In this document: positions 1 through 64,000 of the stretch, piece by piece
Position numbering within the stretch: the stretch's first letter is position 1
Layout of the letters: each line of letters starts with the position of its first letter
Virus record (IMG/VR): IMGVR_UViG_3300037454_000603
Span: 79,646 to 143,645 of that record
Reading direction: 5' to 3' (one strand)
Origin: a virus
Taxonomy: Duplodnaviria; Heunggongvirae; Uroviricota; Caudoviricetes
DNA: 64,000 nucleotides
Notes under the pieces: model-generated
What the model saw: only the letters and a program-made list of their open reading frames with translations
What the model was told of the DNA's origin: nothing
Databases searched by the model: none
Position numbers and translations under genes: made by a program

Positions 1-838
1 TCTTAATTTTAACCCAAACAAGATTGTTGTTATTAACTTCAGAACCATCTATAACTTCAACTTTAGTCTTATAAGGGAGTGTTCCTTTTAACTCTCCATT
101 TGGAGTTGAACGATAGTTAAGTCCATCTTCATAATTTACATAGAAAGTTGAATAAGTAACTTTCTTTTCTTCTTCTTTGGGCTTAACTTCTTCTTTAGGC
201 TGTGCCGCAGCCTCAAAGTCTTTATAGAAATATGACATATCAATTCCATTTGTAAATCCGTTTACCTTATAAACAGAAGTAAATTGCCAAGCATCGTATG
301 TGTTAATAGAAGGTTTACTCTAAGCAGTACCATCATTTGTTCCATACTTTGCACACCAAATAGAATATTTTTTGATTTTATCAAAATCAATTTTATTATT
401 AAACCAATATTCGCTCATGTAAACACCTGGAACATAGCCAAGTTCTTTAATTCTTTCACAGAAAGCAACTGCAACTTCTGTCCAAGTAGCAGTAGTATTG
501 GCATCTGCACGTCCAGTCTTATTTGGGGCAGTACTTTCTTCTATATCAATATAAATTGGATAAGTAGGTTTAAAATTCTTAATTAAGCCATATGCGTAAT
601 CTGCCTCAGCTATAGCTTCTTCTTTATTCTTGGCCTAAGTAAAGAAATAAAAACCATATGGCTTCTTATTATCTTCCATTCCCTTAACGTGCTTATCAAG
701 CTAAGAGTCTTTACATAACGTGCCCGCGGAGCCATATCCACGATAACCAATTCTTATAATTGCTCCATCAATTTCTTGTGCCGCGGCAGCATAGTTAACA
801 TTGGTTTGAAATTGAGATATATCAATAATCTTCTTCAT
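1..838 (-). CDS. GH25 muramidase endolysin with C-terminal SH3-like region (runs off window edge; TAG=Gln)
   Basis: ATG at 838: MKKIIDISQFQ...IRIGYRGYG...YFFT(TAG)AKN...YIDIE. GH25 catalytic D and DxE are present; in-frame TAGs at 701-703 and 635-637, the latter at the conserved Q of YFFxQA; no TAA/TGA down to position 1. Confidence 0.88.
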
Positions 839-1064
839 TTATTTTTCCTCCTTTCAAATATTTTAAAATTTCGTCAATTTTCTAATCCTATTTAAGAAGA
901 TGCTATTCAATTCGATTTATAACTTCATCCTAAACACGATTAGAATTGTCCATTACTTTTTGTAGGTCACCCTAAGTTACATTCTCTTCATAGTTCATTA
1001 AACCAAAAATAAAAGAAGCAACTGCCAATGAGTTCCAGTAATTTTCATTCTTATTCATACTCAT
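822..1064 (-). CDS. small protein with N-terminal hydrophobic segment and coiled coil, upstream of lysin (possible holin-like; 5 TAG)
   Basis: GGAGG RBS; MSMNKNENYWNSLAVASFIFGLMNY...RIEQHLLKQDQKIDEILKYL when TAG=Q; ends at TGA overlapping the lysin start. Confidence 0.6.
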
Positions 1065-1119
1065 AAAGATACCTCCTATTTTAAAAGTAAGGAATTATAT
1101 CTTTATTTCTAATAATTTA

Positions 1120-9163: not shown

Positions 9164-9850
9164 TCACCCCAAATTTTTCTTTCCTTTAACTTGTGCCGCG
9201 GTAGCAGCCAAATCCGCAACATTTACCTTTCCGTCTCCATTAACATCTGCTGCTTTCTATTGTTCTTCAGACAAAGGCTTCTTGCCCTTAACGTGTGCGG
9301 CAATCATTGAAACGTCTGTTACATCAACTTTTCCGTCTCCATTAACGTCGCCCTTAACAACACTTTCAGGCTCTTTATTATCTTCTTCGCCAAGAACCTT
9401 TGTTTGGTCTTTAGCTCTTAAAACTCCGAGAACAGGATTACAACCATCGTTAGCCGCGCTACTATTAAAATAATGTTTAACAAGTTGAGTTTTTTCTCTT
9501 TTTCCAAGAGTATTCTATTCCAAAGAAACAAACCAATCAATATTACCTTCACCATTTCCGATAGCAACGTGACCCCAAGTGCCGCCGCCCCAAATTACAA
9601 CGTCTCCTTTTTGAACAACGAGTTCTCTTGTATTTGGAATTCTATCAAAATTTTCAACTAATGCGGGATAGCTATAGAAATTGTTGTAAAGGTCTCTTGC
9701 ACCAGTGCACCAAACGCCAGTAATATCAAACAAATCTTTCCAATACTGGTCAGCAACGTCAACGCACTGATATCCTGCTACACCGTCATAATCAATTCCT
9801 ACGCCCAAATAAGCCTTTTCAAATTCATCGTAGCTATGATATTTACTCAT
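9164..9850 (-). CDS. CHAP-domain peptidoglycan hydrolase with C-terminal dockerin (228 aa; 2 TAG)
   Basis: CHAP motifs YQCVD, WGHVAI and LE(TAG)N = EQN; then GDVNGDGKVDVTDVSMIAAHVKGKK...AADVNGDGKVNVADL, a duplicated Ca-binding dockerin repeat; TGA at 9164. Confidence 0.85.
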
Positions 9851-10109
9851 TCGTCATAACCTCCTTTCCTATTTCATTAAAATATCGTTTTACTTCCTTG
9901 ACATCTTCTTCTTTTTCAATTAAAATTTTAACAAAAGAATTGATTTTAAAAGCTCCAGAAAGAAGGCCTATCATTGACTTTCCATTAATCATTCTCTCGT
10001 CTTCTGTTATTAAATATAAAGAAGAAGAAACTTTATTTAAATTCCAGTTTAATAGTGCCGCGGCACGACCCCATAGATTGGTATTTAACTTGTACTTAAG
10101 AGTATACAT
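9843..10109 (-). CDS. HPr-family (PTS phosphocarrier-like) protein lacking His15
   Basis: 88 aa; NLWGRAAALL corresponds to GLHARPAxxx, and INGKSMIGLLS to the Ser46 motif. Confidence 0.7.
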   Translation of the reverse strand: MYTLKYKLNTNLWGRAAALLNWNLNKVSSSLYLITEDERMINGKSMIGLLSGAFKINSFVKILIEKEEDVKEVKRYFNEIGKEVMTNE

Positions 10110-11104: not shown

Positions 11105-12697
11105 ATGAAAGTAGTTATAGTTAATGGTCAAGGTGGCGTTGGAAAAGCTTTAACAAATGATACCATTCTACCAACCCCAACTGGCCCTTGTGCCGTAAAG
11201 GACATAAAGGTAGGAGATTTTTTATTTGACCGAGCAGGAAAACCAACTAGAGTATTAGGCGTTTTCCCTTAGGGGGAACGAGAAGTTTATGAAGTTAGCT
11301 TTAAAGATGGTAGAAAAGTAAAATGTTCAAAAGATCACCTATGGAATATTCATAAGTAGAGTTGGCATCGTAAGTCATCAAAAGATAAATTTATGCCTTA
11401 CTCTACGTAGGATATTCTAAAAGAAGGAGTAAAGATTGATGACAGAGCAGGATATCGTTTTAGTATTCAATGCTCTGAAGCAGTAAGTTATAAGGAGAAA
11501 ACTTTAGACATACCGCCATATGTATTTGGGGCTTTTTTGGGAGATGGGTGCTGTACACAAAAAATACTTACACTGTCCTCTAATGACATAGAAATAGTAA
11601 ACAGAGTAAATGAACTATTGGGTAATAACGGTTATAAAAAAACAGAAGAAAATGGATATGGTTGGCGATTTTATTGTTCTAATAAATAGTATAATAGTAA
11701 TAATGTTAAAATGAAGTATTTTTAGACAGAAACTTTTTTTGAAAAGTATAAAAATAATATATGTTAGTATAGTTATAACAAATCTATTCCAGATGATTAT
11801 AAATATAGTTCATTAGAATAGAGATATGAACTAATACGTGGATTAATGGATACTGATGGCAGTATTGATAATAAAGGACGGACACGTTTTACTTCAGCTA
11901 GTTATTAGCTAATTTTGGATGTAAAAGAAATTCTAGGATCTCTGGGATATATTTCTACAATTCATGAAGATAAACGAGAGAATAAATATACTCAAGGTTG
12001 CTATGAGCTAGATATCAATATAGATAATAAAGAAAAAGAAAAGTTATTTTTTCTACCTAGGAAAAAAGATAGAGCAAAGAATCTTCCTAAATCTACTTTT
12101 AATTATCAAAGAACACGAATTGTAAATATTAAATCATTAAATTATAAAGCTCCTATGACTTGTTTTTTAGTTGATAATGAAGAACATTTATTTTTAGCTA
12201 ATGACTTTGTTGTAACCCATAATACTACGTTTGAAAACTTTGTTTATGATTATGGTTCTTAGTAGGGTTATCAATTTTATATAACCTCAATGGTTAGTTT
12301 TGTTAAATAGGAAGCAGAAAAACTTGGCTGGCGCGGCGGTAAGTCAATGGAAGATAGGCGTTTTCTTTCAGATTTAAAGGACGCTTTAGCAAAGTGGAAT
12401 GATAGTCCATTCTAGGATATAATTAATACAATTAATAAATGTGAAAATTAGAAATTTGATTTTATCTTTATTGACGCTCGTGAAGCAGAAGATATTGAGA
12501 GAATAAAAGAAAGCTATCCCAATGTAACAACTCTCCTTGTTAAGCAGCCGTCCTGTGATTTATAGACTTATGGTAATCACGCTGATGATGGAGTATTTGA
12601 TATTTAGTATGATTGGATAATTGAAAACAACGGGACTCTTGAAGAACTCCGCGCCGCGGCCCTAACATTCTATGAGGCTATTGCAAATGAAGAATAA
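11105..12697 (+). CDS. P-loop nucleotide (dNMP-like) kinase interrupted by an intein, 530-aa precursor (about 15 TAG)
   Basis: MKVVIVNGQGGVGK-[intein]-TTFENF...GWRGGKSMEDRRFLSDLKDAL...IDAREAEDI...IIENNGTLEEL; frame open except for TAG; TAA at 12695. Confidence 0.75.
11147..12223 (+). mobile_element. class 3 intein with LAGLIDADG homing endonuclease (359 aa)
   Basis: Starts ALTNDTILPTPTG (Ala1); block B KDHLW; endonuclease blocks FGAFLGDG and LIRGLMDTDG; block F MTCFLVDNEEHLFLA; ends VVTHN/T; inserted in Walker A between K and T. Confidence 0.88.
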
Positions 12698-13259
12698 TTT
12701 CTTAGCTACTGACCCATAGGCAGTTAATGATTTGCTTAGTAAAATGCCAGAACTAAGAGAAAGAGGATTAAAAGTTCTAGAACCCGCCGCTGGCAATGGA
12801 ATTCTTGCTGATAGGTACAAATTTCTAACTCGCAATGAAATAGATATGTTTGATATTGAGCCGCGGCGCGACGATATTGAACAATATGATTATATGAAGT
12901 TAGATTGTAGAGGAAAATATGATTTAATTTTAACTAGTTTTCCTTCTGAAATGGCGGATAAAAACAATCCAATTGGATATAGTTAGCTTTTAAGAAAAGC
13001 TTTAATAGATGTTAAATATGGTGGCTATGTTGCGAATTTTTAGAAGTTAGCACAATTGGAAAGCAAGTAGAGATATTAGGATATTTATGGAAAATATAAG
13101 CCATATAAGGTTTTGATTTATAGTAGGAGAATTAACTGCTATAAAAATGGGGATTTAAATTAGAAAGTTTAGGGCGCAGTTGCTTATTCTTGGCTTGTTT
13201 GGCACAAAGATGAGAATGGGTTTTTCTCGAACGAAACAAAATTGGATTGGATTTACTAA
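12687..13259 (+). CDS. small DNA N6-adenine-methyltransferase-like protein with degenerate catalytic motif (190 aa; several TAG)
   Basis: ATDPQAV...LEPAAGNG (SAM motif I)...DLILTSFPS (where NPPY is expected)...RRINCYKNGD...AVAYSWLVW. Confidence 0.6.
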
Positions 13260-15124: not shown

Positions 15125-15623
15125 ATACTTTACTGACGGAGCCGCGACAATGAAGAAGAAGAATGGTGAATATGTTAGAGAAGCTGGCGGTTGGGCATGG
15201 ATACTTGCTGATACTAAAGATAATAAAATATTGGAATATAAAAAAGGCAATTTTTTACAAACAACCAATAATTATTGTGAACTATATGCAATACATGACG
15301 TTTTAAAAACTCTTTTAAAAAATAATACTTCTAATTCAGAAATTTATATATATTCTGATAGTGCATATTGCGTAAATATGCTAAAAAGTGATGGTTGGAT
15401 TTATTCTTGGGCTAAAGCAAATTGGAAAAGAAAAGGCGGAAAAGATATAGAAAATTTATCTCTTATCCAGCACTTGTACATGGAAAAGAAAAATCTTGAA
15501 CAACTTTTAAATACTATAAATTTTATTAAAGTTCAAGGTCATAGTAATAATATTTTTAATAATATGGCAGATAAATTGGCAGTGGAGGCGAAAAAAGATG
15601 CGGCTATGGGAAAAATTTAGTAA
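15111..15623 (+). CDS. rnhA: ribonuclease HI
   Basis: FTDGA, TTNNYCELYAI, YSDSAYCVN and KVQGHSNNIFNNMADKLA motifs; final TAG directly followed by TAA. Confidence 0.88.
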
Positions 15624-16545
15624 AGAAGAATTAGAAGAAATATTTAAAAATTCTTTTACCAAAGCAGAAATTTTAAAAAAGTTAGGATATAAAAAACTTG
15701 ATAATACAAAACCAATATAGGACATATTAAATAAATATTAGTTTAATATATCACATTTATTGGGACCAGGCAATAGAACATCTATTCCAATGATTGGCAA
15801 AACTTTTGGCAGATTAACAGTCTTAGAAGAAGATGTCGAATATCCTGTGATACATAACTTAACTAAAGGAAAATATTATAAATGTCAATGCTCTTGTGAT
15901 AATAAAACAATCATAACCGCATTAGGAAACAATCTTAGAAATGGGTCTACTAAATCATGTGGATGTTTAATCAAGGATTTAAATAAATAGAATGTAATAC
16001 CAATGATTGGTAAACAGATTGGACATTTAACTGTTTTAGAAATAGATAATAACTATAAAATAAAAAATAATATCAAATCATCTTCATACTTTTATAAATG
16101 TAAATGTGATTGTGGTAAAATTATTACAATTAATGGTAGCGAATTAAGACGTAAAGAACACAACCAAATATCTTGTGGATGTATTTTATCTAAAGGAGAA
16201 TAGAAAATTAAAGAAATTTTATCATTTTTACAAATTAACTTTAAATAGCAATACACTTTTGAAAATTTAAAAAGTAATAAGGGTTACAATTTAAAATTTG
16301 ATTTTGGTATTTTAGACGCAAATCAAAAATTATTATGTTTAATTGAGTTTTAGGGAAAATAGCATTATGAAATAATACCACAATGGAAAGATGAAAATAA
16401 ATTTTTAATTTAGCAAGAAAATGATAATCTCAAAAGAAAATATTGTTAGAAATGCAATATTCCTTTGATAGAAATTCCCTATTGGGATTTTAACAAAATT
16501 GATGAAAAATATTTAAAGGAGAAGATAAATGAATATAGTAATTGA
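15598..16545 (+). CDS. putative homing endonuclease: two Cys-rich (RLTVL...CxC...SCGC) repeats plus a PD-(D/E)XK/Vsr-like domain (315 aa)
   Basis: Joins track ORFs via TAG; C-terminal KFDFGI...LIEF(TAG)GK(TAG)HY...LIEIPYWD matches the EFQGxQHY pattern. Confidence 0.7.
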
Positions 16546-18539: not shown

Positions 18540-18954
18540 TGAACCTTCAAGGGGAGAAAGAAAAATAATGGAACTCCTACATTATGGAGGTCTGAAATTT
18601 CAAAGAGAAGTTAGCTTTGAAGGTTTAGTAGGTAAAAAGAAAGTTCCTCTTCGTTTTGATTTTGCAGTTTATAATTCACAAGGTTAGCTTTTAGTTTTAA
18701 TTGACTTCGATGGTGAATAGCATTTTAAATATGTTAAATATTTTCACAAAACAATAAGTGGATTTAAACGCGCGCAAGAGAGAGATAGAATTAAGAACAA
18801 GTACTGCTTAAAACATAATATACCTTTAATTAGAATTCCTTTTTGGGATTTAGAAGACTTAACCTTAAATAAAATTTTTGGTACCGCGGCGTATCGAGTT
18901 GAAAATATATATCATAATGACTATCTTGCTCGATAGTTGGAGGTGAGGAAATAA
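18523..18954 (+). CDS. stand-alone PD-(D/E)XK/Vsr-like endonuclease (143 aa; 3 TAG)
   Basis: SRGERKI...LRFDFAVY...IDFDGE(TAG)HF...ERDRIKNKYC...LIRIPFWD. Confidence 0.7.
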
Positions 18955-23620: not shown

Positions 23621-24525
23621 AAGACCTAATAATTCTCGGTAATGGCATGGCAGGAATGACTGCTGCCCTCTATGCCAAAAGAGCTAACCTTGACTTTAGA
23701 TTGGTAGGAAAAGACGAATATGACTTTGGACAAATTGGTAATGCCATACTCGTTGAAAACTTTCCTTGCGCGGCCAGCCAGTCTGGCTTTGAACTTGCTA
23801 GCAGTCTACATGATCAGCTTGAGGCTAATGGTGTAAAAGTTGAGGAACATACAATTAGTAAAATAATGCAAATGTCAGATGGTATTTTTTCAATATACTA
23901 TGAAGATGGAACTGTTGACTTAACTAAAAGTATAATCTATGCTCTCGGCGCAAGACATAGACAACTAAATTGTGAAATTGATAATGGTGTTAAACTTCAT
24001 TACTGTGCTTTATGTGATGGAGCATTATATAAAGATAAAGTTGTAGCAGTTATAGGTGGCGGCGATGTCGCTTTCACACAAGCAGAATATCTTTCAAAGA
24101 TTTGCAAAGATGTTTACATTGTAATGTGCGACCAAAATGTTACTGCCGCACCGACAACTTTTGACAGAGTTTCAAAACTCCACAATGTTCATATTTGGTA
24201 TGATGCACCAGTTACTTCAATTTCCAAGGATAATGAGGGGACTTGTTGGATATGGTGTAAAGGAGTAAGAGGTCCTCTGTTTGCAGAAGGTATATTCGTA
24301 GCAATAGGAATGATACCTAATACTCAATCAATAGCACCATCCAGCCCAATAATAACCGATACATTCGGATATATTCAAGCAGATGAAAATGGCAAGACTA
24401 AAATAGATGGTTTCTTCGCCGCGGGAGACGTAAGAGCTAAATCAGTCCGTCAAGCACTTACTGCCGCGGCAGATGGAGCTAATGCAGTTAATTCTGTTAT
24501 TAGATATTTAAAAAATCGAGAGTGA
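23617..24525 (+). CDS. trxB: thioredoxin-disulfide reductase
   Basis: GNGMAGMTAA FAD motif, YCALCDG redox CxxC, IGGGDVA, FAAGDV. Confidence 0.88.
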   Translation: MKDLIILGNGMAGMTAALYAKRANLDFRLVGKDEYDFGQIGNAILVENFPCAASQSGFELASSLHDQLEANGVKVEEHTISKIMQMSDGIFSIYYEDGTVDLTKSIIYALGARHRQLNCEIDNGVKLHYCALCDGALYKDKVVAVIGGGDVAFTQAEYLSKICKDVYIVMCDQNVTAAPTTFDRVSKLHNVHIWYDAPVTSISKDNEGTCWIWCKGVRGPLFAEGIFVAIGMIPNTQSIAPSSPIITDTFGYIQADENGKTKIDGFFAAGDVRAKSVRQALTAAADGANAVNSVIRYLKNRE

Positions 24526-40117: not shown

Positions 40118-40478
40118 TTATTATGACTACAATGAATTTAAATCTGTTATGGATTATACAAATAATAAATATCATATAATAGAAATTGTAAGTGGTGGTG
40201 CTCGTGGCGCTGACTCACTCGCAGAAAGATATGCTAAAGAAAATAATATTCCTATTAAAGTTTTTAAAGCAGATTGGGATACTCATGGAAAAGCCGCAGG
40301 ATATATTCGTAATGCAGAAATGCATAATTATTTAAAAGATTTTGAAGATAGAATGTGTATCTGTTTTTGGGACGGACAGAGCCGCGGCACAGCACATAAT
40401 TTTAAATTAAGTAAAAATAATAATACTAAATTGGTTTGTTATAATTTTAAATTACATAAAGTAGTGGAGGTTTTATGA
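40083..40478 (+). CDS. SLOG/YspA-like (DUF2493-type) protein
   Basis: LLVAGSR, IVSGGARGADSLAERYA, KAAGYIRN, FWDGQSRGT. Confidence 0.75.
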   Translation: MGIKLLVAGSRNYYDYNEFKSVMDYTNNKYHIIEIVSGGARGADSLAERYAKENNIPIKVFKADWDTHGKAAGYIRNAEMHNYLKDFEDRMCICFWDGQSRGTAHNFKLSKNNNTKLVCYNFKLHKVVEVL

Positions 40479-41237: not shown

Positions 41238-41407
41238 TAGTGAAGTACCATATGGATGAAAAGGAAAACTTTAAGAAAAAAATTGACCGTTTTAAGGATG
41301 AGATTAATAGGCAAAACAAAGAAATTCAGAAGGAAAGAGAAAGAAAAAATAAAACAAATAAGAAGTAATCTTGCGCCGCGGCACCAACCGCGGCTTATTT
41401 GTTTAAT

Positions 41408-42407: not shown

Positions 42408-42414
42408 AATAACA

Positions 42415-45400
42415 ATGGAGTTTTACGGTAGCGCACATTCGCATACCGACCGCAGCAATTTTAGATTGCGAGACAGTACTAATAAACTAGAAGAAATGTG
42501 TTGGTATGCGGCTGACGTATTAAAACATAATTTTATAGCGATTACAGACCACGAAACAATTGCAACGGCGATTGACTGCCAGAAAGTTGAAAAGAAAATC
42601 AGGGAAACTTATCCTGAATTTAAGATAATCAGAGGTAATGAAATTTATCTTTGTCGAAATGGATTATCTAAAGCCAACTATAAAAAAGGAGAAGACTATT
42701 TCTATCATTGGATACTCATTGCGAAGGACGCCGAGGGTCACCGACAGATTAGAGAAATATCTACTCGGGCTTGGTCACGTTGTTTTCTCACTGGACATAT
42801 GATGAGAGTTCCGACCTATTACCAAGATTTGATTGATATAATCGGAGCCAATCCTGGTCATGTAATTATGAGTACAGCCTGCTTGGGGTCAAAGCCTTCT
42901 AAGCTTATTTTGAAATATACAAAAACTCAGATTTCTGAGGAATATGAATATATTAAACAGTGGTTGCTGCATATAAGCGAAATATGTGGAAAAGAAAACT
43001 TCTTTCTTGAAGTTCAGCCTTCTTTTAATAAGGAACAGATTGCTGTTAATAAAATATACAAACAATTATCCGAGGAACTTAATTTTCCTATAATAATTAC
43101 TCTTGACGCGCATTATCTAAAGAAGGAAGACGAAGCTATTCACCATGCGTTCTTGACTTCTCAAGATGGAGAAAGAGAGACTTCGGAGTTCTATGCTTCG
43201 ACTTATATGATGAGCCGTGAAGAAATTCATTCTTATATGGACGATTCAATTGGGAAGGAAACTGTTAGCAAATGGATGAATAATACTAAAGCAATTTATG
43301 ACGCTTGCGAGGATTATGATTTAACTAAGCCAACTCGTATTGTTTATCTTCCTTTGACAATTGATAAAATAACTTTCGAAGAGTTTATGATGTATAGGGA
43401 TAGAATTAAAGAACTTGAATATTTCTACAAATCTCCACATCAAGAGAACAGAGACCTCGCCGCGGCAATAGTAAGAAAAATTCTTGTTGACCCAGAGCAA
43501 TATGATAATGGACCTACATACGAGGCAATAGATGATAACCTTAAAGCAATTCGTCTGGCTTCTGAAAAGATGAACACTCAATGGAGTGCATACTTGCTTA
43601 ACCTGCGAGATTACGTCAATGTAATTTGGGAAAAAGGAGACTCCTTAATGGGACCCGCCCGTGGTTCTGGTACAGGATTCTTGCTTCTTAACATGCTAGG
43701 CGTAACACAGATTAATCCTTTAAGAGAAACAACTAAAACTTACAGTTTCCGTTTTCTTAATCCTGAGCGTGTTAGCCCCTTGGACGTTGACTTGGATATA
43801 GAAGGAGGTAAGCGACCTCAAGTATACAAAGCTCTTCAAGACACTTATGGCGTAGATAGAGTTTCTAAAGTTCTTACTATACGTACAGAAGCTACAAAAT
43901 CAGCTATACTTACAGCTGCAAGAGGACTTGGACTTGATCCTGACGAAGGAGCTTATTTAGCTTCATTTATTAAAAGCGATAGAGGACAGCAAAGAACTCT
44001 TGACCAGACTTATTATGGCGATGAAGAAAATGATATTAAGCCCGACTTAAAGTTCAGAGAATTAATGGACGGAAAATATCATAATGTTTGGGAAGTTGCT
44101 AAATTTATAGCAGGTCTTTGTTCTGGTTGTGGAAGTCACGCAGGAGGAGTTATCTTCTATGATGAACCTATTACTAATAGTACGGCTTTAATGCAAACAA
44201 CCAATGGAGACGTCATTACTCAGTATGACCTGCATACAGTAGAAGACGTTGGCTCTCTTAAAATTGACCTTTTGTCAATTCAAGGACTGGATAGAATGAG
44301 AGCTTGTCTTGATTTGTTAACAGAATATGGTTATGTTGATAGTACTCTACCTTTGAGACAGAGATATGAACAGACCATTGGAGTATATAAACTTGAAAGA
44401 AAAGAACCTAAGATGTGGGATATGATTGCCGCACATAAAATACAGAGTCTGTTCCAGATGGAACAGCAAAGCGGTATAAAAGGTATCGCCGCGGTTAAAC
44501 CCACTTCCATTGATGACCTTGCCGCCCTTAATGCGGTTATCCGTTTGATGGCACCAGAGAAAGGCGCCGAGCAGCCTATTGAAAAGTTTGCTAGATTCAA
44601 GGCTAATCCTTCTTTATGGTATGATGAAATGGATAATTATGGAGTTAGTAAAGCGGGTCAAAAAGTTCTTGAAAAGATTGTAGGAATTTCCTATGGACTT
44701 TGTATTCAGCAAGAACAATTTATGATGTTGGTTCAGCAGCCTGAAATCGGAGGTTTTACACTTCTTTGGGCAGATAGACTTAGAAAAGCAATTTCTAAGA
44801 AAAAGCCTCAAGAATATGAAGCTCTAACAAAAGAGTTCTATGAACAGACGGCTGAAAAAGGTTGCGAAGCCAACTTGTGTAGATATGTTTGGGAAGTTCT
44901 AATTGCGATGAACCGTGGATATGGTTTTAATGCCGCTCATACCTTGGCTTATTCTATAGTGGCATTGCAAGAAATGAACTTAGCTTTTAGATATCCGATT
45001 TTATTCTGGGATACTGCAAATCTAATAGTAGACTCTGGTTCTATGAATCTATCAGAAGAAATCCTTAATGAGGAAGAAGATTTTGAAGAAGAAGAAGAAA
45101 CAGAAGAAGAATCATATGAAGACAGTTTCTTCGATGAAGATATCGGAGAAGATGAAGAAGAGGATATTAGTACAGAAAACAAAGCTAAGAAAAAGCTTAA
45201 GAACTCTTCAACAGATTATGGTAAGATTAGTTCAGCTATTGGTAAAATGAAAGCAAGAGGTGTCGCTTTCGCGTTGCCTAATATAAATAAGTCTACCATA
45301 ACTTTTTCTCCTGACCTTGAAAATAATCGTATTCTTTATGGTCTTAGAGGACTTCAAAGAATAGGCAATCAGCTTATTAAGGATATATTCCAAAACAGAC

Positions 45401-46437: not shown

Positions 46438-47393
46438 TGGCATGCATAGGTTTATATGATATAGAGCTTTGGCATCGTGGAAAGGCGATGCCAAACCTCG
46501 AACTTATGAAAATTTATAATTATCATTATAATAAAGGTGATAAGATTATAATGATGAGACCAAATGAAAATGAAGGACGTTTTAATTAGATAATTTATTT
46601 TAAAGACAATCCTAATACTCAATTATCTAAAACACTTTAGTTAAGTGGACCAAATAAAAAAATTTATGGGTATGGTTTTTATAACGGTTTTTATCCTCTT
46701 GATGAAAAATATTAGAATGAACCACCTTGCTATCTTCCTTATGAACCTTTTACAGAACGTTTCGCCGCGGCCTCATATCGTTTAATTAAAAATTCTTCTT
46801 TAATTAGGTTAGAAAATCAAGATTTTTCTGATTTCAAAAAAGAAAAAACATGGATAAGTTTTGCTGACCATAATTTACTTTATATTGATGGAACGAAAGA
46901 TTTCTTTGAAGAAAATAAAAATCATAGATTTAATCCTCTTCATAGTTTAAACGTAATAGATGAACAAACTTTCTTGAACTTCGTTTAGTATGTTCCACTT
47001 ATGAATAGACGTTTATTGGTTTAGTTCAAATTCTCTGAGGAATTATTTAAAAATTATTTTAATGACAATATTACTTTTGATTGGCTCAATCCTTGGGAAA
47101 AAGAAAATCAAGAACATTTCTTACAAAGAATTATTACCATGTTCCTATATTATAAAACTAATAATGCTAATATAATAATAGAAATTCACCCTGAAGCAAA
47201 AAATTTACTAGACTATATTCTTATTTGGGGAATGAAAGGGCGGCAGCAATCCTATCAAGAATATTATACAAATGAAAATAATCAAAAAGCTCTTTCTTTT
47301 ATTGAGAATTCTTCTAGTGAAATTAGAACTCTATTAAAAAGTAAACCTTCTAAAATGCAAAGTTCAGATATTGACTTCAAAGGCATTCTATGA
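46437..47393 (+). CDS. hypothetical protein whose N-terminus resembles phage radical-SAM-like proteins (318 aa; 5 TAG)
   Basis: IGLYDIE...PNLELMKIYNYH..KGD; open to TGA with TAG=Q; no CxxxCxxC. Confidence 0.55.
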
Positions 47394-49166: not shown

Positions 49167-49904
49167 TTGGGAAAGATAAAATATGAAGAAGTAAAATCAG
49201 ATATTAATGATAGCGGTTGGCAATTAGCTTCAACCAAATATGTAAATCTTAAAACTGATTTAGAGTTAATTTGTCCTAATGGACACACCATTTATAAAAC
49301 ATATGGTGATTGGCGGGATGAAGAGCAACATCAGTGTCCAATTTGTATTAAACAGCCCTTCAAAAAAATTAGTGAAAGGGCCACAAAGAAAAAAGGATAT
49401 CGAATATTAGCCTTTGATTAGGCAAGTATTACAAGTGGTTGGAGTTTATTTGAAGATGGTAAATTAATAAATTATGGTAAATGGACTTCAAATGGAGAAA
49501 AAAATACTCAAAGAATTTCTTAGACTAAAGCTTGGGTGGCTTCTTTAATAGAAAGTCACCAACCTAATGAAGTTATTTTAGAAGATATACAATTATAGAA
49601 ATTTTCTTCTGAACAAGGTGGAGAAAGTGCCGCCGTAACAACTTATAAAAAGTTGGCTCATTTACAAGGCGTTTTAAAAAATTATTGCTACGAAAATGGT
49701 ATTCCTTATAAAATTGCTCCGCCTGCAACTTGGCGCTCATATTCTAATGTAAAAGGTAAAAGTAGAACAGATAGAAAACGAAGTGCTCAGCTTATAGTAA
49801 AAAATATTTACGATGTTGATGTAAGTGAAGATGAGGCAGATGCAATATTAATCGGCCGCTGGGCCGCGGCATAGTAGAAGAAAACAGAAATAATTATGTT
49901 TTAA
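49167..49904 (+). CDS. ruvC: RuvC-like Holliday-junction resolvase with N-terminal Zn ribbon (245 aa; TAG=Gln)
   Basis: CPNGH...CPIC; ILAFD(TAG)ASITSGW, ILEDI, LAHLQGV, DEADAILIG. Confidence 0.75.
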
Positions 49905-49992: not shown

Positions 49993-49993
49993 T

Positions 49994-52155: not shown

Positions 52156-52386
52156 TTATTTTAAAAGCTACATAAAATTATTGAACTCATTGTCCAGATT
52201 GAGTCCACGAGCCTAAAACATCTGCTAAGCGAGATTAACTAATTGCTAAGAGTCTCCATTCTAAGCATACTCAATTAAAGCCATAATATTTGGATTATTA
52301 ATATTATTATTTTTAATTGCTGATAAAACGACCTCCTTTGGATCTCGGCCTCGCATAAGCTATGCTATTACCATTAAATTATTCAT
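52156..52386 (-). CDS. cassette gene 2: small N/Q/M-rich helical protein (76 aa; 6 TAG)
   Basis: GGAGG RBS, ATGA overlap; MNNLMVIAQLMRGRDP...QQLVNLAQQMF; absent from the code-11 track. Confidence 0.7.
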
Positions 52387-52826
52387 ATATCAAAGCCTCC
52401 CCTATCTTTATTTAAAGCTTTAAACTATTCTTCTAAAGTATTAATTTTAGTATTACAGGTCTCAACCTGCGCCGCGAGAGCTTTAAAAGGCTCATCCTCC
52501 ACCGATGGTGCCGCGGCACAAGACTCTTGAGCTTTCTACTCGCTATTTGTAAAAGGAAGAATTTTATATGGATAAAATAAGGGATTTCCATTCTACATTG
52601 TTTTAATATACATCACATTTTCTGGTAGACATAGCGCCACCGAAATTCCTGCTCCAACAGGTACATTCGCAACTTCAAGAGTTGAGTTAATATTATAAAC
52701 GTTTCCTGAAGGTTGAGGAAATAGTGGCTAAACATTTTGATTTAAAATTTGTGGGTTAAATTGCTAAACCTATGAGGGCTAAGGTTGCGGCATATTAACC
52801 TAATTAGCATTATATCCAATTGGCAT
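52383..52826 (-). CDS. cassette gene 1: Q/P/N-rich N-terminus plus globular and coiled-coil parts (147 aa; 8 TAG)
   Basis: GAGGTG RBS; MPIGYNANQVNMPQPQPSQVQQFNPQ...MYIKTMQNGNP; absent from the code-11 track. Confidence 0.7.
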
Positions 52827-58945: not shown

Positions 58946-61309
58946 TTAATAAAACTAAGGTATGTATTCTATGGTAGCTTCATTAAATAAATCTGCATAC
59001 CCCCAATATAACGGTGGATAGTTATCCCAGATATAATTGTTCGCATTCCACCACCAAGAATCAATATCAGAATCTATTTGTCCATCTTCGGTAGAATTAT
59101 AAATTCTCCAATAATCAGCTAAAATCTTTAAAAAGCCATATTCATCTCGCTGCCATTTTGAAATGAAAGTTTCTGCTTCAAATCCTCGACTGTCTAAAGT
59201 ATATTCTACGTATCCAATATTCCATTTTCTAAATTCCAATTTTTCATCAACTTTATCAAGGTCCGTAGTACCATTTTTAATATTTTCAATGTCTGTTAAA
59301 TTGGTTACTTTTCCTCTTTCATATAAATATCGAGCGGCGGCAAGACGATATACTTTTTCAAATAATGCCCTATCTTCTTGTCCACTCTGTCCCCAAATAA
59401 AAGGCTTTCTACCATCTATCCAACGTTTACCTCCCCATATATCTTCTGTAACGACAGGGCTTATGTCTATTAAAGACCATCCAGGAGGCAACTTAAACCA
59501 GTGTCCTTTTTCTATATTTTCATTAAAAAGTAATTTTGTAGTACTGTCATCATACTCAGCATTTTCCTCATTTCTACCTACTGCTGTAATTATATTATAT
59601 AACATTCTGCGCTCAGAGTCAAGTGTTAAAGTAGGCTAATTTATTCCACTTGTAGTAATTTTATCAAAATTATTATTATTTATATCCAAATAATCATATG
59701 TCATGTATTGAGGAATGTGGACATTATTGAACTAAAACTCTCCATAATTGCCTGTAATATCTCTTAAATATTCTAATGGATTATAGATATAATCATAGAA
59801 CAAATTGGCATAGCTATCTGAATACTAAGAAAAAATACATTGCTTTAATGTTTCCCAATAAAGTTTATATCTTTCGTCATCATTAATACAAGCATTGTAT
59901 AATTCTTTATAACGCTTTGCAATCGCTAATCCTTTTTTATACATTCTACCTTTAGTAGAATTTCCCTATTCATCATATTGACCATAAGATTGCCAATAGA
60001 ATATTTTAATAAAATCAGAAAGTCTATCACTTGGAATAGGTTCTACAATATAGGCATGATTAGGGTGAGACATTTTGAGCTCTTTTGTTACTATATCTAT
60101 TGTATTGTTTTCTTCCTGTTTTTGGAGTATAGTAAAATATTTCGCTCCATATTTATAAAGAGTATCATCTGCATTATTATAAGTCTTTAATCCTGTCCAA
60201 TCCACCGCCTAATCCAAAGTAAGTCTTTGGACATTGTAACGACTAATTCTAAATTTAAGAAAATCTGGATTTTCTACATCTAAAACTCCTCTCATGTTTT
60301 TATAATCAAAATTTTTCAAATGGAGTTTAAAATCAACTGGCACATCGCCAGGGTTATAGACTAATAATCTACTTCCAATTAGACTATTTTGTTTATTAAG
60401 ACCCATTTCCATATTATAATAATTTGTTTTACTATATTGTGGTAAATAAATTAATTCTTGGTCATAGTCTAACGTAGGAGTAGTTAACAACTTTGCCGTT
60501 CCTTCCCACTCAGGTATATTATTCCAATATCCTCTTACATCAATAATTGTTTTTTCTTCTCCGTCTTTTTTAAAAAACAATTCTCCCTTCTAAACCTATT
60601 CAATGGTAGGATAACCGCCATTCCACCCAGAATTCATGTTAGGATATTTTTCTTGCGGGTCTAATAATTCACTAGAGCCACCATTACATTCATCCTCGTG
60701 AAGAAAACTCTCCCAATTGTAATGGTCTTTAATTAGCCCTGTTAACATTTTTCTTGGTGCCGCGGCATGGTAAGGTTCATAATCTATTGAATTAGTGTCC
60801 AAAGAACCATGTTCTATAATCTACTAAGGAGTCATACAGGTATAATAATCCGCAGCCCTAACTATATATTTATTAAAACAATAAGCTAAAGGATGATAGC
60901 AAATAAAACTTAAACTTCCTTCGCCTTTATAAATTCTCTAATTGGTATCTCTATCGTGAAAGCAAACAAATTTAAATTCTGGAGCAGATTTAACCTTTGC
61001 ACGATAAGTTTTATATGGATTTTCATCAAAAACTAAGTCCTGAAGTTTATCAGTTGAAAAAACCTGAGAAATTGTTCTCCAAAGTTCTTCGCTTATATTA
61101 TCAAAAGCAATATTTACTTTAAACTCTCTAGGCTTAAAAGTCGAGCCAAAGTAATATTGTCCATCTCCGCCAGGAACATCCACCGTTACATCGGCAGGAG
61201 TTGGCAGTAGGTTTTTTTGATACCTACTGCTCGAACTAACTACCTCTAGGTGGAGGTCCTAGGTATGAATATTACCAAAGCGAAAACCACGGAAATCTTT
61301 CATACCCAT
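58946..61309 (-). CDS. distal tail protein (Dit-like) with large insertions, 787 aa (TAG=Gln)
   Basis: FRGFRFGNIH...VDVPGGDGQYYFGSTFKPREFKVNIAFD...LVFDENPYKTY...F.CYHP; five track ORFs in one frame; directly after TMP. Confidence 0.78.
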
Positions 61310-61325
61310 TCTACCTCCATTTTAA

Positions 61326-64000
61326 TTAAGTATTCAAAATTACATTTGAGCCAGCATAGGAAGCCGCATCTACAATGTCTTGTTTAATTCTTTCTATTGC
61401 AGAATCAACATCATAATCATCAGCAATATTTTCTACATTAACAGTGACATTAATTGTAGTATCATTGCGATTTGTATTATTTATTGTTGGACTCTAAGAA
61501 TAAGTAGTAAAGTCTAACAAATCTCTTAAAGAAGCCAGAACGTCTGTCATCGCTGCAATATTTTCTGTGTCATTGGCTGATAAGAAAGCCTCTGGACGTG
61601 TAGGACTACCGTCTACCCAAGCAGGACCTGTATAATTAACTAAGCCGCCTGTGGCAAACTTTTTAAAAATTCCGCCTGTATGGTCTACAGTCTAATCAAT
61701 AATATTCCTATTATTATTAAGCCATAATACATCATCGTTATAATAACCATGATAACCATATTCTTTAAGTTTCTTAATAACTTCTTTATGATCTATATCA
61801 TAAATTTCTGAAGGCACTGCAGTATTAACACCATTTCCACCTGGATTTGGATGAATTTTAAACCATTCTTCAAGTTTTTTCTCAATAGTTTTTTCTAAAT
61901 TACTTTTTCCCTTTTCTTCTTCATATGAAGCTAAATCTTTAATTTTTGTATCATCAGCATTTTGAGATTTCCAATATCCATCTGTTAGACCTGGCCATGA
62001 AAAATTACTATCATTATTTCCGCCACCATTGCCTCCATTATCACCATCATCATCTTTTATTATTTCTTTGAGGTCTGAAATCTATGCTGCAAGTTTTCCA
62101 TAAGCACTTGCTAATTCGTTAACCTTTTTACCCTCTTCTTCAATAGCATCATTGTAAGCTTTTTGCTTTTCAGCTAGAGCTTCCATAGCATCAACCAAAG
62201 CATCTTTAGCTTTTGTAATTGCATCATCAACCTTAGCTGAAATTTCATCCAATGATCTCTAAGACTCACTGACTAAAGCTTCACTCGTATCAGAAATAAC
62301 TCTTTGAACTTCCTCTTCGGTAACAGCCAAACTATCAATAATCTATTGTTCTTGTTCCTCCATGTACTCCTAATGTTTCTAGAACATTTCGGTAAGTTCC
62401 ATCTCTTCAAGTTCAATTTGCTATGCTGTTTTATCTTTCCAGTCATCGCTATTTTGCTTCATCCAATTGATAAAATCTTCTGCAGAGCCAAGTCCAAGAA
62501 CAATTTTATTTGCTTCTGCAATCCAATTAGTATTATCTTTTAAGGCTTCTTGATATTCTATTTCATCTTGTCTAGTTTCATCTTGTAACTCATATAATTC
62601 TTTTAAATTATTAATAATATTATCAATAGATTCATCAAGTAATGACTACTCATCTTTTTGAATTTCTTTTTCAAGCTTCTAATTTGAAACTGCATTCGCG
62701 CCAGAAGTATCTCTCTACTACAAAGAAAGCTTTTTACGTTTCTAAGCTAAATCTTCCCACTTATTTTCTTGTTCTCTTAATTTTCTTTGTTTATCAATAC
62801 TAGCTTGTAATGCCTTTAAATAATCATCATCAGCATCCTTCATAGCATCGTATTTATCTTTTAAATCTTCAACCTATTCTTCGTATTTTTCTTTTAAGAC
62901 TTCAGCAATTTTTTCTTGAATAGAAACTTCTGCTTGGAGATTAGCTTTATGAATTTCTTGTCTTTCCTTTAATAGTTTTCTAATAGCATCATTATTCTTT
63001 GAAATATTATCTGTATTAGTATTATAACTTTCAGTTAATGTAGCTATTTCATTTTTAATTTCATCAGGTAATGCTGCACGATTAAGAGCTTCAATATCAG
63101 CAGTAAGAACACCATCAATTATTTTAAAATACTGTCTTACATTAGTATCATAGTTTGCTCCAAATTTAGAATTTAAATCCTTTAATTTCTAAGGTAATCC
63201 TTCATAAAGCGCTGATAAATCATTCTGCGCCGCGGAACCATAAACTTCATTTTGAGCTAAATAATTTAATAATTGATTTCTACTATTTTCTAAATAACTC
63301 TATAATGCGCTCTTAGTGTCTTCACCAATATTAGGATTGTCTAAAATATCCTTGGCACGGGCGGCAGCATCAGCATATCTTTGATTTAAAGTTGAATAGT
63401 TATACATTGGGTCGAGCTAATTCTTAAAATTATCAGACCCATACATAGTCTCATTTAATTCATTCTATTTATCAATAACATTCTATTGCGCTTTAGCTAT
63501 ATCCTTTAAAGCATCGGCAACTTTTTTATGAGCTTCTTCAACATCTTTCTAAGCTTTTACAATTTCATTATCTTCAAGAGCCTATTTTTCTATTTCAGCA
63601 TTAGCTTCGCTTAAACTCCAACGTAAAAGTTTTAACTATAATAAGCTCTCTTTCTAAGCTTTATCTAAGTCTTTAAGATTTTCTAATTCCTTAATCTATG
63701 AATCTAAGAAAGTCTAATAATAATCCTATTTAAAAGATGAATCCTCATTAAAGAATTCTCCCAGTTTAACTGTTGGATCTATAGCTAACATTGATTCTGC
63801 CCAAGAAGAGAATGATGATGAATCTATCACTCCATTAGAGTAGAAATTGGTCATCATAGTCTTATAAGCAGAAATAGAAGCACTTATTTTACCAGCTCGT
63901 TTAGTAAGAATAGTATCTATACTTTGCTCTAAGCCAAGAATAGAACGTATAACCCCTTCTTCTTGTCTTAATTTCTTTAATTCTTCTTCAAGGTCTTTAA
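61326..64000 (-). CDS. tape measure protein, C-terminal part (starts beyond the window; many TAG)
   Basis: long Ala/Glu/Lys/Gln helical ORF with TAG=Q; C-terminal FATGGLVNYTGPAWVDGS...PEAFL; TAA at 61326. Confidence 0.85.

Follow-up and report, generated by a model that had tools for sequence, protein, structure and literature searches.

Over-representation of the palindrome GCCGCGGC in an AT-rich rumen phage: a probable by-product, for the most part, of a genome-wide bias towards short words of G and C

Very-short-patch repair by Dcm and Vsr shapes the frequencies of CCWGG and CTWGG in E. coli. Phages and their hosts share oligonucleotide signatures, and codon-pair (dicodon) bias is an established phenomenon. 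The closest described palindromes are cyanobacterial HIP1 (GCGATCGC) and the alternate HIPs, which occur at a density of about 1 per kb, with a methyltransferase recognising the inner sequence encoded in the same genome (Elhai 2015, PMC4390886). HIP1 sites also show conservation exceeding the background when related genomes are compared (Xu, Lawrence and Durand 2018, PMC5861425).

The window analysed here is a whole stretch of 64,000 nt taken from a phage genome of 178,943 bp. Its octamer GCCGCGGC resembles HIP1 in being a GC-rich 8-bp palindrome present at tens to hundreds of times expectation, both between genes and, in several frames, within them. Like HIP1, it arises through substitution and not insertion. 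The differences are nevertheless numerous. The carrier is a phage, in which no cognate methyltransferase was found, the sites are not conserved between relatives, their spacing is exponential whereas that of HIP1 is periodic, and their density is 1 per 5.6 kb. Most of the excess, moreover, can be accounted for by a pentamer or dicodon bias. A full-text literature search for the octamer returned only primers and unrelated uses. The analysis points to a real, strong and lineage-specific oligonucleotide bias, with no support for a HIP1-type mechanism.

Placement of the palindrome

In the window, exact counting gives 13 copies of GCCGCGGC and 26 of CCGCGG; the corresponding counts for the whole genome are 32 and 59. 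All 13 coordinates given in the initial annotation, as well as its approximate hexamer count, proved exact. Its estimates of about 29% GC, and of 0.01 octamers and 0.6 hexamers expected, were too low: the window has 32.6% GC, for which base composition predicts about 0.03 and 1.2, respectively. The sites are the following.

780..787, in a minus-strand gene running over the window start: GCCGCGGC, Ala-Ala-Ala (YAAAAQE)
10057..10064, in gene 9843-10109 (minus strand): GCCGCGGC, Ala-Ala-Ala (GRAAALL)
12653..12660, in gene 11105-12697 (plus strand, LAGLIDADG domain): GCCGCGGC, Ala-Ala-Ala (LRAAALT)
12860..12867, in gene 12672-13259 (plus strand): GCCGCGGC, GAG CCG CGG CGC (EPRR)
24463..24470, in gene 23617-24525 (plus strand, pyridine-nucleotide disulfide oxidoreductase-like): GCCGCGGC, Ala-Ala-Ala (LTAAADG)
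29651..29658, in topoisomerase II subunit gene 28084-30477 (plus strand): GCCGCGGC, CGC CGC GGC (RRG)
40381..40388, in gene 40026-40478 (plus strand, SLOG/YspA-like): GCCGCGGC, AGC CGC GGC (SRG)
41375..41394, plus strand: intergenic hairpin, GCCGCGG, loop CACCAA, CCGCGGC, then TTATTTGTTT; holds octamer 41375 and hexamer 41388
41408-41436: promoter-like site TTGACT-17-TATAAT, after the hairpin
43459..43466, in DNA polymerase gene 42415-46437 (plus strand): GCCGCGGC, Ala-Ala-Ala (DLAAAIV)
46764..46771, in gene 46437-47393 (plus strand): GCCGCGGC, Ala-Ala-Ala (RFAAASY)
49863..49870, in gene 49167-49904 (plus strand): GCCGCGGC, Ala-Ala-Ala then two in-frame TAG codons (RWAAAQQ)
52510..52517, in gene 52383-52826 (minus strand): GCCGCGGC, Ala-Ala-Ala (SCAAAPS)
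60759..60766, in Dit-like tail gene 58946-61309 (minus strand): GCCGCGGC, Ala-Ala-Ala (YHAAAPR)
724..729, and starts at 2908, 3932, 5400, 9196, 18884, 24419, 26558, 41388, 44489, 49117, 54913 and 63230: CCGCGG without the outer G/C pair

Twelve of the 13 octamers lie in genes, on both strands, and one (41375) is intergenic, in agreement with the original description. The claim that the sites occupy different reading frames holds, as PRR, RRG and SRG do occur, but one frame dominates, nine of the twelve coding copies reading GCC GCG GCN, i.e., Ala-Ala-Ala. Over the whole genome, about 9 of the 32 copies fall outside called genes. In the DNA polymerase, relatives read LIKAII or LVKAII at the position of octamer 43459. 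The hexamers without the outer pair mostly read NCC GCG GNN; the one at 18884 lies outside called genes, the one at 41388 is the hairpin arm, and the one at 24419 is located 45 nt upstream of octamer 24463.

The intergenic hairpin has a 7-bp all-GC stem and a 6-nt loop (dG -18 kcal/mol, z -3.3). With its GC stem-loop followed by a T-run, downstream of called gene 40935-41237, it qualifies as an intrinsic terminator. An Rfam search of the window gave no match. Several of the genomic copies outside called genes form the stem of a terminator or regulatory hairpin or sit within a promoter-upstream palindrome, and hence have a structural reason of their own to exist. Extending this reason to the whole genome, with G/C runs serving everywhere as stems of RNA or DNA secondary structure, looks extremely improbable. 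Copies outside called genes do often pair with a nearby complementary run, as in the terminator, and four pairs of CCGCGG lie less than 100 nt apart where 1.9 would be expected. However, only 24 of the 351 G/C runs of at least 6 nt have an inverted partner within 80 nt, and inside genes 12 inverted pairs compare with 7 direct ones, which leaves hairpin pairing of the coding copies unsupported.

The gaps between octamers follow an exponential distribution (coefficient of variation 0.86; KS p 0.44), and site density is uniform along the genome and equal in TAG-containing and TAG-free genes. No CCGCGG position is shared with the relative G001:C38 (0 of 27 and 0 of 12). At 80% nucleotide identity, the shared sites are 0/1 and 0/1 for octamers and 1/3 and 1/2 for hexamers, against 38% for all 6-mers, these numbers being small. 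Sites that are not conserved in position and are exponentially spaced argue against fixed operator, partition or packaging sites.

Null models and the underlying word preference

GCCGCGGC is hugely over-represented in this AT-rich phage, and the greater part of the excess can be traced to a bias, found across the genome, towards short words made only of G and C. One hundred dinucleotide-preserving shuffles of the window give an expectation of 0.06 octamers, with a maximum of 1, against 13 observed. Over the genome, Markov models of orders 1-2 predict 0.1-0.3 copies, whereas order 4 already predicts 14.4 and order 5 predicts 28.6 of the 32 observed, the octamers themselves inflating the order-5 null. 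The opinion that codon use alone is insufficient is borne out by synonymous shuffling: when amino acids and per-gene codon use are kept, 0.9 coding copies are expected in the genome against 23 observed, and 0.5 +/- 0.6 (maximum 3) against 11 in the 65 genes wholly inside the window.

A further null is a dicodon model with fixed amino acids (forward-backward sampling, 300 simulations), which is conservative because its training data contain the octamers. It yields 11.6 coding copies in the genome, none of the 300 simulations reaching 23, and 4.8 +/- 1.9 in the same 65 window genes, where 2 of 300 reach 11. The coding excess falls accordingly from about 25-fold under the synonymous shuffle to about 2-fold. 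The initial annotation had reasoned that enrichment disappearing under a null preserving amino acids and dicodons would speak against its reading; the excess is indeed mostly gone, but the 2-fold part is left. When the octamers are masked, the pentamer-level expectation is about 6 for the 32 genomic copies (about 5-fold, by arithmetic from the counts with a Poisson tail). The octamer appears largely not to be an independent unit, with a palindrome excess of about 2-fold remaining beyond the dicodon model. More generally, a spectacular k-mer excess can dissolve into lower-order context bias under the right null, one that keeps amino acids and dicodons and uses the correct genetic code.

The favoured words have GCSGC as their core, together with GGCGG/CCGCC and CGSCG. 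They consist of G and C only, contain CpG, are strand-symmetric, occur in all three frames, and rank at the top among coding 4-, 5- and 6-mers. GCCGC and GCGGC, rightly reported as frequent, total 139 in the window against 14.7 expected, and GCCGC is found at 374 genomic loci against 41 from composition. In coding sequence, synonymous shuffling gives 35 for the 111 GCCGC and 55 for the 167 GCGGC, an excess of about 3-fold that is the same for the two strands and for each of the frames; the dicodon model reproduces both pentamers (112 and 165), as well as the G/C runs (152 observed, 146 modelled). Runs of at least 7 nt number 217 against 46 expected; the excess begins at about 5 nt and is large in runs of 7 nt and more, whereas runs of 3-4 nt are fewer than expected. 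At 80% identity, GCSGC is kept in 10/16 and 10/14 cases against 43% for average 5-mers (p 0.09 and 0.03); given this somewhat better conservation, weak selection may be acting.

The same preference is visible in Ala codons that precede another Ala codon: 65% of their wobble bases are G or C, against about 17% elsewhere. G/C at the wobble base becomes more frequent only if the two neighbouring bases on either side are themselves G/C. General G/C clustering through nearest-neighbour effects is ruled out, since the wobble effect needs two flanking positions on each side and the run excess starts at about 5 nt. This requirement for two G/C on each side suggests a protein recognising a word of at least 5 bp over simple neighbour chemistry. 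Within Ala-Ala-Ala, the wobble pair is C,G in 18 of 39 tripeptides (GC 0, CC 1, GG 4). The peptides themselves are over-represented, Ala-Ala 1.62-fold and Ala-Ala-Ala 4.4-fold; the latter value is 1.9-fold in a relative and in the bacterial assembly G002, and 0.6-fold in T4, which places this phage at about twice the level of its relatives. GCWGC is at 0.59 of expectation, and only in the Ala-Ala frame (frame 0; 34 vs 85 and 56 vs 104), the other frames having 39 vs 30. Restriction avoidance of GCWGC as a cause is ruled out, the depletion being limited to this frame whereas GATC is depleted in all of them.

Most coding copies being Ala-Ala-Ala in one frame, a translational origin has to be weighed, in which a codon-pair preference would follow from the tRNA pool. 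The phage encodes its own tRNA-Ala with anticodon CGC, GCC GCG GCA would call on three Ala isoacceptors in succession, of the 327 GCG codons 89 are followed by a further codon for Ala, and the dicodon model suffices for the pentamers. However, the two other frames show a GCSGC enrichment of 4- to 10-fold, with sense equal to antisense, and the enrichment is about 15-fold in the 30 kb outside called genes, which include tRNAs, hairpins and some missed genes. We regard such an origin as very unlikely.

A by-product of the word bias is the account we prefer. GCCGCGGC would be the palindromic overlap of two favoured pentamers, GCCGC and GCGGC, both raised by a genome-wide, strand-symmetric preference for CpG-containing G/C-only words that would most simply act on DNA. 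This GCSGC preference forces Ala-Ala(-Ala) into GCC GCG GCN, and goes with the Ala-Ala-Ala excess. The drive may be a context-dependent mutation or repair bias, or an oligonucleotide signature shared by phage and host; selection on individual sites appears less likely. Of the four GCSGCSGC forms the palindrome dominates, probably for two reasons: the counter-selected GGCC is part of GCGGCCGC, and the phage does not counter-select CGCG, unlike its relatives and the host-like genome (observed/expected 1.43 here, 0.52 in a relative and 0.52 in G002). Taken as a whole, with the octamer as a by-product of a GCSGC-type word bias and a structural reason added for the hairpin copies, we give this explanation an even chance.

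Methyltransferases, Vsr-clan nucleases and possible selection on site number

Two Vsr-like nucleases had been reported in the window. Neither matches the Vsr family (PF03852), but two sub-threshold matches to DUF2726 (PD-(D/E)XK) are present (16285-16500 and 18652-18840), and the one that was modelled has a predicted Vsr-type fold.

15598..16545, plus strand: gene of a 315-aa protein whose N-terminal part is helical, with two Cys-rich repeats, and whose C-terminal nuclease domain has a predicted Vsr-type PD-(D/E)XK fold
18652..18840, plus strand: second sub-threshold DUF2726-like nuclease match; its frame of 187 aa contains 2 TAG codons and is open only when these are translated

The modelled C-terminal domain of the first protein superposes on a phage homing endonuclease whose catalytic domain is Vsr-like, I-Bth0305I (PDB 3r3p; target-normalised TM-score 0.66-0.72, 17-20% identity, Foldseek probability 1.0). 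Its likeness to Vsr itself (1cw0/1vsr) is at fold level only. The modelled nuclease thus looks most like I-Bth0305I, from which it differs by an N-terminal part with two Cys-rich repeats, an architecture seen across its family. NCBIfam has no name for the DUF2726-like protein. The phage genome is full of free-standing homing endonuclease genes, and a link between this nuclease and the motif is speculative.

These genes matter for a HIP1-type mechanism, in which CCGCGG or GCSGC would be marked by a methyltransferase, while mismatch repair directed by this methylation, of the Vsr kind, would keep turning near-matches into the motif. Such a process could account for a GC-rich 8-bp palindrome far above expectation, and a turnover of sites without positional conservation would fit replenishment by repair. 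As in the Dcm/Vsr system, there is a strand-symmetric shift of the central base at Ala-Ala junctions, GCWGC going down and GCSGC up, the outcome expected if T:G were corrected to C:G at the central position of GCNGC. The Vsr-clan genes, one of them with a Vsr-type fold in its model, are a further likeness. Nevertheless, searches of the phage found no C5, N4/N6 or Dam-type (D12-class) methyltransferase (PF00145, PF01555, PF02086) and no DUF559 match, PF03852 matched nothing in the phage or in three assemblies, and G002 has a single partial C5 methyltransferase match. No depletion is seen among the transition variants of CCGCGG (TCGCGG 1.96, CTGCGG 1.27, CCGTGG 0.84), and the GCWGC deficit is confined to one frame. 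The lower density and lack of conservation relative to HIPs, together with the resemblance of the modelled nuclease to a homing endonuclease, add to the case against methylation-directed repair, which had been put forward at first and which we now rate as highly improbable.

The residual palindrome excess invites another reading, in which a phage protein acting on duplex DNA (in compaction, packaging, nicking or recombination) would select for the number of sites and not for their location. The Vsr-fold nuclease is a candidate reader, as its two predicted Cys-rich repeats could read two GCSGC half-sites, and the two-repeat architecture is kept in its family. The 2-fold excess over the dicodon model and the 5-fold excess over the masked pentamer model fit this reading, as do an octamer density about 25 times that of the G002 host-like assembly, an even distribution along the genome, and flanking information (T-K-G-Y-G) on each side of the sites; the Ala-Ala-Ala excess would be the cost of placing them in genes. 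However, codon usage predicts the flanks seen around coding copies, with a codon ending in T in front and GCA behind, and of the 11 extended 12-mers 7 are located outside called genes. Nothing ties any protein to the motif, relatives with the same nuclease family have fewer octamers or another favoured word, and the target of a nuclease is more usually avoided in the phage's own genome. We consider selection on site number unlikely. A stronger version would make GCCGCGGC a methyltransferase-free phage counterpart of the cyanobacterial HIPs, at about one copy per 5 kb, kept either by density selection (compaction, packaging, programmed nicking) or by a repair bias of the phage's own two-repeat nucleases of predicted Vsr fold. 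This version is distinctly unlikely; if true, it would imply a pressure under which the phage's proteins have gained about 20 additional Ala-Ala-Ala tripeptides.

Relatives and candidate hosts

The by-product account leads to the question of where else the word bias is found. It is present in the related phage contig G001:C38 (GCCGC at 4.5 times composition, 12 octamers), in L004, L006 and L026, and in the bacterial contigs of G002; it is absent from T4 and from the bacterial contigs of G001. G002 is a cellulolytic Ruminococcus-like assembly whose bacterial contigs carry dockerins, and it is a candidate host by binning and dockerin content. In these contigs, the Ala|Ala wobble base is G or C in 57% of cases against 21%, GCSGC reaches 1.8-2.0 times the shuffle, and GCCGC has a density of 2331/Mb, compared with 2090/Mb in the phage. 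The initial annotation held that equal enrichment in the host would count against it: the GCSGC bias is indeed found in the candidate host, but the octamer is far denser in the phage. G001, the other candidate-host assembly, also holds a related phage contig yet lacks the bias, which counts against the by-product account. Another related phage lineage prefers GCGCG/CGCGC in place of GCSGC. The bias thus characterises this clade of rumen phages with a recoded TAG, and is weaker in the Ruminococcus-like candidate host.

A pentamer bias common to the phage clade and the candidate host, reproduced by dicodons and independent of position, resembles an ordinary phage-host signature. It departs from one in being unusually strong and cooperative, in exceeding the host-like genome, in shifting peptide composition, and in the phage-specific palindrome excess. 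Its strength is such that synonymous choice is reshaped in all frames, in coincidence with the Ala-Ala-Ala excess.

Known Firmicute Chi sequences contain GCGG (AGCGG in B. subtilis, GAAGCGG in S. aureus), which raises the idea that GCGGC-type words are recognised by a host AddAB/RecBCD enzyme and protect the linear genome, the palindrome offering both orientations. The word is enriched in both phage and candidate host, at about 2 per kb, and the GCGCG favoured by the related lineage recalls the lactococcal Chi. Nonetheless, a Chi sequence is asymmetric and its copies have a skew in the genomes of bacteria, unlike the word found here, which has no strand asymmetry once codon usage is controlled for (3.0x vs 3.2x in the phage, 2.0x vs 1.8x in the host-like contigs). 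A literature search on Chi found nothing on Clostridia. The chance that the words act in this way seems very small indeed.

Sister phage lineages differ in the bias (GCSGC vs CGCGC), and one candidate host shares it whereas another does not; it could therefore be of use in assigning hosts to uncultured phages of the rumen. Should a repair or binding activity lie behind it, this would indicate a DNA transaction, not yet described, in cells of the Ruminococcus type or in the phages that infect them. A megablast of the polymerase gene against GenBank phages gave no match. One nearly identical contig was found. Strains about 90% identical to this phage occur in bovine-gut samples, as contigs of four runs over 40001-50000.

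Abundance of the octamer and of shorter G/C words

The initial annotation had placed at least 13 copies of the palindromic octamer GCCGCGGC and about 26 copies of its CCGCGG core (the hexamer) in the window. Exactly 13, each at its assigned position, and 26 were counted; the base composition of about 29% G+C assumed at that time has to be corrected to 32.6%. Dinucleotide-preserving shuffles of the window give 0.06 octamers (maximum 1). The whole source record, of 178,943 bp, rated complete by CheckV and including the window as bases 79646-143645, contains 32 octamers and 59 hexamers. The same stretch of about 40 nt, with a G8-9 run, is found at both record ends (genome 99 and 178869), an overlap that would fit either a circular assembly or terminal redundancy, though the record is classed as linear. 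The sequencing runs containing this phage DNA are bovine-gut metagenomes, and strains about 90% identical to it occur in such samples.

The octamer excess is the tip of a hierarchy already visible in tetramers (CCGC/GCGG, 704 versus 386; GCCG/CGGC, 584 versus 320) and pentamers. GCCGC/GCGGC (GCSGC), rightly described as frequent, is the top-enriched pentamer of the genome, with 374 loci versus 41 from composition. Markov models of order 3, 4 and 5 predict 3.9, 14.4 and 28.6 genomic octamers, respectively. A GCC/GGC triplet tract read in steps of one base yields the enriched pentamers GCCGC, CCGCC and CGCCG and their complements, and G/C-only runs of at least 7 nt number 217 versus 46 expected, their recurrent forms including GCGCCGCC, GCCGCCC and GCCGCGGCGC. 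As a whole, CpG is under-represented (odds 0.77), in A/T contexts as well (about 0.5), while it is 2.8-fold enriched as CCGC/GCGG.

Genetic code, wobble context and codon-based null models

TAG is read as sense in this genome. Open frames of at least 300 nt cover 57% of it under the standard code and 85% with TAG as sense; two of the 26 tRNAs, both encoded outside the window (genome 52884-52960 and 57784-57861), have the anticodon CUA, and 516 in-frame TAG codons are spread across 90 genes. Such codons are abundant in window genes 53333-58933 (32 codons) and 11105-12697 (15 codons), and under the standard code long stretches of the window appear gene-free. The codon-based nulls all use our gene calls (208 genes, 83% of the genome), made by a home-made caller that misses small genes; "intergenic" thus means outside these calls. 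The phage encodes a DnaE-like polymerase, topoisomerase II, NrdD, a RecJ-like exonuclease, a DnaB-like helicase, a DnaG-like primase, a ligase, RNase H and Dit-type tail proteins. A 236-residue protein of several helix-turn-helix (HTH) units (window 34626-35336) adjoins the helicase gene; it matches many HTH families (E 1e-7 to 1e-10) and is a candidate sequence-specific DNA binder. Another putative DNA-binding protein is encoded at window 31001-31282.

Most coding octamers (18 of 23) read GCC GCG GCN, i.e., Ala-Ala-Ala, and most hexamers in genes (33 of 41) read NCC GCG GNN. The wobble base of an Ala codon preceding another Ala codon is G or C in 65% of cases, compared to about 17% elsewhere. 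Values are likewise higher than elsewhere for C in Gly-Gly (47%), G in Pro-Pro (42%) and G or C in Arg-Arg encoded as CGN CGN (65%). This rise occurs only when both flanks are G/C at both positions (38.7%), one flank alone giving 18-22%. The phage also encodes a tRNA-Ala with anticodon CGC (genome 35521-35599), which decodes GCG only; this codon accounts for a minority of Ala codons here, and in 27% of cases another Ala codon follows it directly.

Two null models were compared (see table). The synonymous shuffle (200 shuffles) keeps the proteins and the per-gene codon usage. The dicodon model samples synonymous codons given the whole protein sequence and the genome's own codon-pair frequencies, by a forward-backward procedure (300 runs).

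Table. Coding words under two null models
Word; observed; synonymous shuffle, mean; dicodon model, mean
GCCGCGGC; 23; 0.9 (maximum 4); 11.6 +/- 3.0 (0/300 runs reach 23)
CCGCGG; 41; 4.4; 30.8 (9/300 runs reach 41)
GCCGC; 111; 35; 112
GCGGC; 167; 55; 165
G/C runs of at least 7 nt; 152; –; 146
GCCGCCGC (direct form); 1; –; 7.0
GCGGCGGC (direct form); 6; –; 10.9

The octamer excess is beyond plain codon usage, as had been proposed: 23 copies are observed versus 0.9 with proteins and per-gene codon usage fixed. The G/C words of the table come at the top when all coding 4-, 5- and 6-mers are ranked by z-score. The occurrence of sites on both strands, in several frames and between genes was also confirmed: the pentamers show the same 3-fold enrichment on both strands and are enriched in every frame, and 9 octamers and 18 hexamers lie outside our gene calls.

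The amino-acid and dicodon null, a check already suggested in the initial annotation, accounts for most of this excess, which shrinks from about 25-fold to about 2-fold; the remaining 2-fold, a preference for the palindromic arrangement, persists. Genes lying entirely within the window contain 11 octamers, versus 0.5 (synonymous shuffle) and 4.8 (dicodon model; 2/300 runs reach 11). The dicodon null is conservative because its training data contain the octamers; once these are masked, the pentamer-level expectation is about 6 per genome (our arithmetic from Markov counts, with a computed Poisson tail). The octamer appears to arise chiefly through palindromic overlap under a pentamer/dicodon bias that runs through the lineage and is common to one candidate host. 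Context-dependent mutation or repair, or a host oligonucleotide signature, would drive this bias; we rank such a drive first and give it about an even chance. Protein-binding sites selected for their density come second, as a rather improbable explanation.

Relatives, candidate hosts and the comparison with HIP1

The relatives found in IMG/VR through the polymerase are 37-54% identical, and most are TAG-recoded too. A search with NrdD retrieved 182-184 kb contigs (NrdD 80% identical) binned in assemblies labelled Ca. Fimenecus (G001), Ruminococcus sp. (G002) and Oscillospiraceae (G003). GCCGC is enriched 4.5-fold in the G001 phage contig G001:C38 (38.9% G+C, 12 octamers), and 6-fold in relatives L004 and L006. 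The same word bias, with 3 octamers, is seen in a 15.7-kb contig binned as bacterial (L026, identical to G001:C11), which is a TAG-recoded phage fragment, its frame coverage rising from 64% to 90% with TAG as sense. Since phage contigs lie within these assemblies, host assignment by binning is unsafe. A sister lineage (L001 and L002) favours another word: CGCGC exceeds its compositional expectation 10-fold, there is no enrichment of GCCGC, and GCWGC is nearly missing, with 1-4 sites per 24 kb.

All 15 octamers of G001 lie on the phage contig (12) or the phage-like fragment (3); on its bacterial contigs the octamer is absent, and so is the bias (Ala|Ala wobble G/C 6% versus 12% elsewhere). The contigs of G002, a candidate host, are of bacterial, cellulosomal origin; they encode UvrC, Pol III alpha and a dockerin-bearing GH5 cellulase. 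The bias is present in them, with an Ala|Ala wobble G/C of 57% versus 21%, GCSGC 1.8-2.0-fold over shuffle, symmetric on both strands, and a GCCGC density of 2331 per Mb versus 2090 in the phage. The octamer is scarce there (about 2.3 Mb, phage contig excluded, contain 16, versus 179 per Mb in the phage). In T4, an unrelated phage, no enrichment of the words is seen; Ala|Ala wobble is independent of context, and the comparison with the synonymous shuffle is flat. G002 and the relative phage counter-select CGCG (0.52) and the phage under study does not (1.43), which would explain why a CGCG-containing palindrome flourishes in the latter.

In blocks aligned with G001:C38 (median 46% protein identity), none of 27 CCGCGG sites recurs, nor does any of 12 when the comparison is reversed. 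Over 6 kb aligned with L034 at 80% nucleotide identity, octamers are shared in 0/1 and 0/1 cases, hexamers in 1/3 and 1/2 (all 6-mers, 38%), and GCSGC in 10/16 and 10/14 (all 5-mers, 43%; p 0.09 and 0.03). L006 and G001:C38 are closer to each other; 3 of 4 L006 sites are common, in flanks about 90% identical, a sharing that is unremarkable. The distances between sites follow an exponential distribution (coefficient of variation 0.86, KS p 0.44), GCSGC density varies little (33-46 per 20 kb), and TAG-containing and TAG-free genes have the same octamer density.

Beyond over-representation, the cyanobacterial palindrome HIP1 is defined by a cognate methyltransferase, conserved sites and periodic spacing, together with a higher density (PMC4390886, PMC5861425). 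The phage octamer has none of these, and the HIP1-like, methylation-repair reading put forward initially is not supported. The phage genome gave no match to C5 (PF00145), N4/N6 (PF01555) or D12/Dam-class (PF02086) methyltransferases, nor to the Vsr (PF03852) or DUF559 (PF04480) families; Vsr matches are also absent from the three assemblies, G002 having one partial C5 match. The CCGCGG transition variants are not depleted. HIP-type, translational, Chi-like and structural explanations all rank below density-selected protein sites.

The two "Vsr-like nucleases" of the initial annotation correspond to two sub-threshold DUF2726 matches, the first with a Vsr-type fold, without any PF03852 match. 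Its family, common on large phage contigs, numbers at least 687 proteins of about 300 residues, which combine two tandem Cys-rich repeats (W.C.C.CGN...SCGC) with a Vsr-fold nuclease domain and a C-terminal IEYQGxQH-type motif. In its structure model (mean pLDDT 89.8), the C-terminal domain fits the catalytic domain of I-Bth0305I, a phage homing endonuclease (TM-score 0.66-0.72), better than E. coli Vsr (0.51-0.52, normalised to target); the Foldseek E-values are weak, with probabilities of 1.0. A homing-type role would be the simpler reading, because the genome is crowded with GIY-YIG, HNH and LAGLIDADG genes.

Nuclease genes in the window
11105-12697, LAGLIDADG endonuclease domain, within the replication module
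15598-16545, DUF2726-like protein, first family member
about 18300-18900, second family member, sub-threshold DUF2726 match
25428-26156, GIY-YIG plus HTH, within the replication module
41502-42407, HNH endonuclease domain, within the replication module

True avoidance is clear in the phage for GATC (99 versus 391), CCGG (14 versus 158), GGCC, CATG and CTAG, and the 184-kb G001:C38 has one GATC, two CTAG and five GGCC. These differing patterns among sister phages suggest different restriction pressures. Under the synonymous shuffle, GCWGC is depleted in the Ala-Ala frame only, and restriction avoidance of GCWGC as a cause is thus ruled out.

Copies outside gene calls and effect on proteins

Several copies outside the gene calls have in common a consensus of about 17 nt, TTGCGCCGCGGCACCAA, asymmetric beyond the palindromic core. 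At genome 26395, 36293 and 40849 and at window 41376 it precedes, by 20-30 nt, a conserved promoter, TTGAAA-N17-TGATATAAT (also written TTGAAA-N17-TGATATAATTATTATAGA); some copies adjoin instead iteron-like repeats within the genome's first 13 kb. The element could serve as the stem of a terminator or as a site for a regulator. Further octamer and hexamer copies form the arms of GC-rich hairpins. The window's only octamer outside gene calls, followed downstream by a near-consensus promoter, is part of the following one.

Hairpin in the window
octamer 41375 and hexamer 41388, 7-bp all-GC stem, 6-nt loop, then TTATTTGTTT; dG -18 kcal/mol, z -3.3

Relative to amino-acid composition, Ala-Ala is over-represented 1.62-fold and Ala-Ala-Ala 4.4-fold (39 versus 8.8), the latter value being 1.9-fold in a related phage and in the Ruminococcus-like contigs, 1.4-fold in the other bacterial contigs and 0.6-fold in T4. 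The wobble pair of these 39 tripeptides is C,G in 18 and G,C, a pair that would create GGCC, in none. Relatives often carry other residues at the aligned positions, for example ELIKAII or ELVKAII in three relatives for DLAAAIV here, and GIALSKP or GIALAKP for GIAAVKP, among further cases. We read these alignments as a DNA-level preference that has altered protein sequence.
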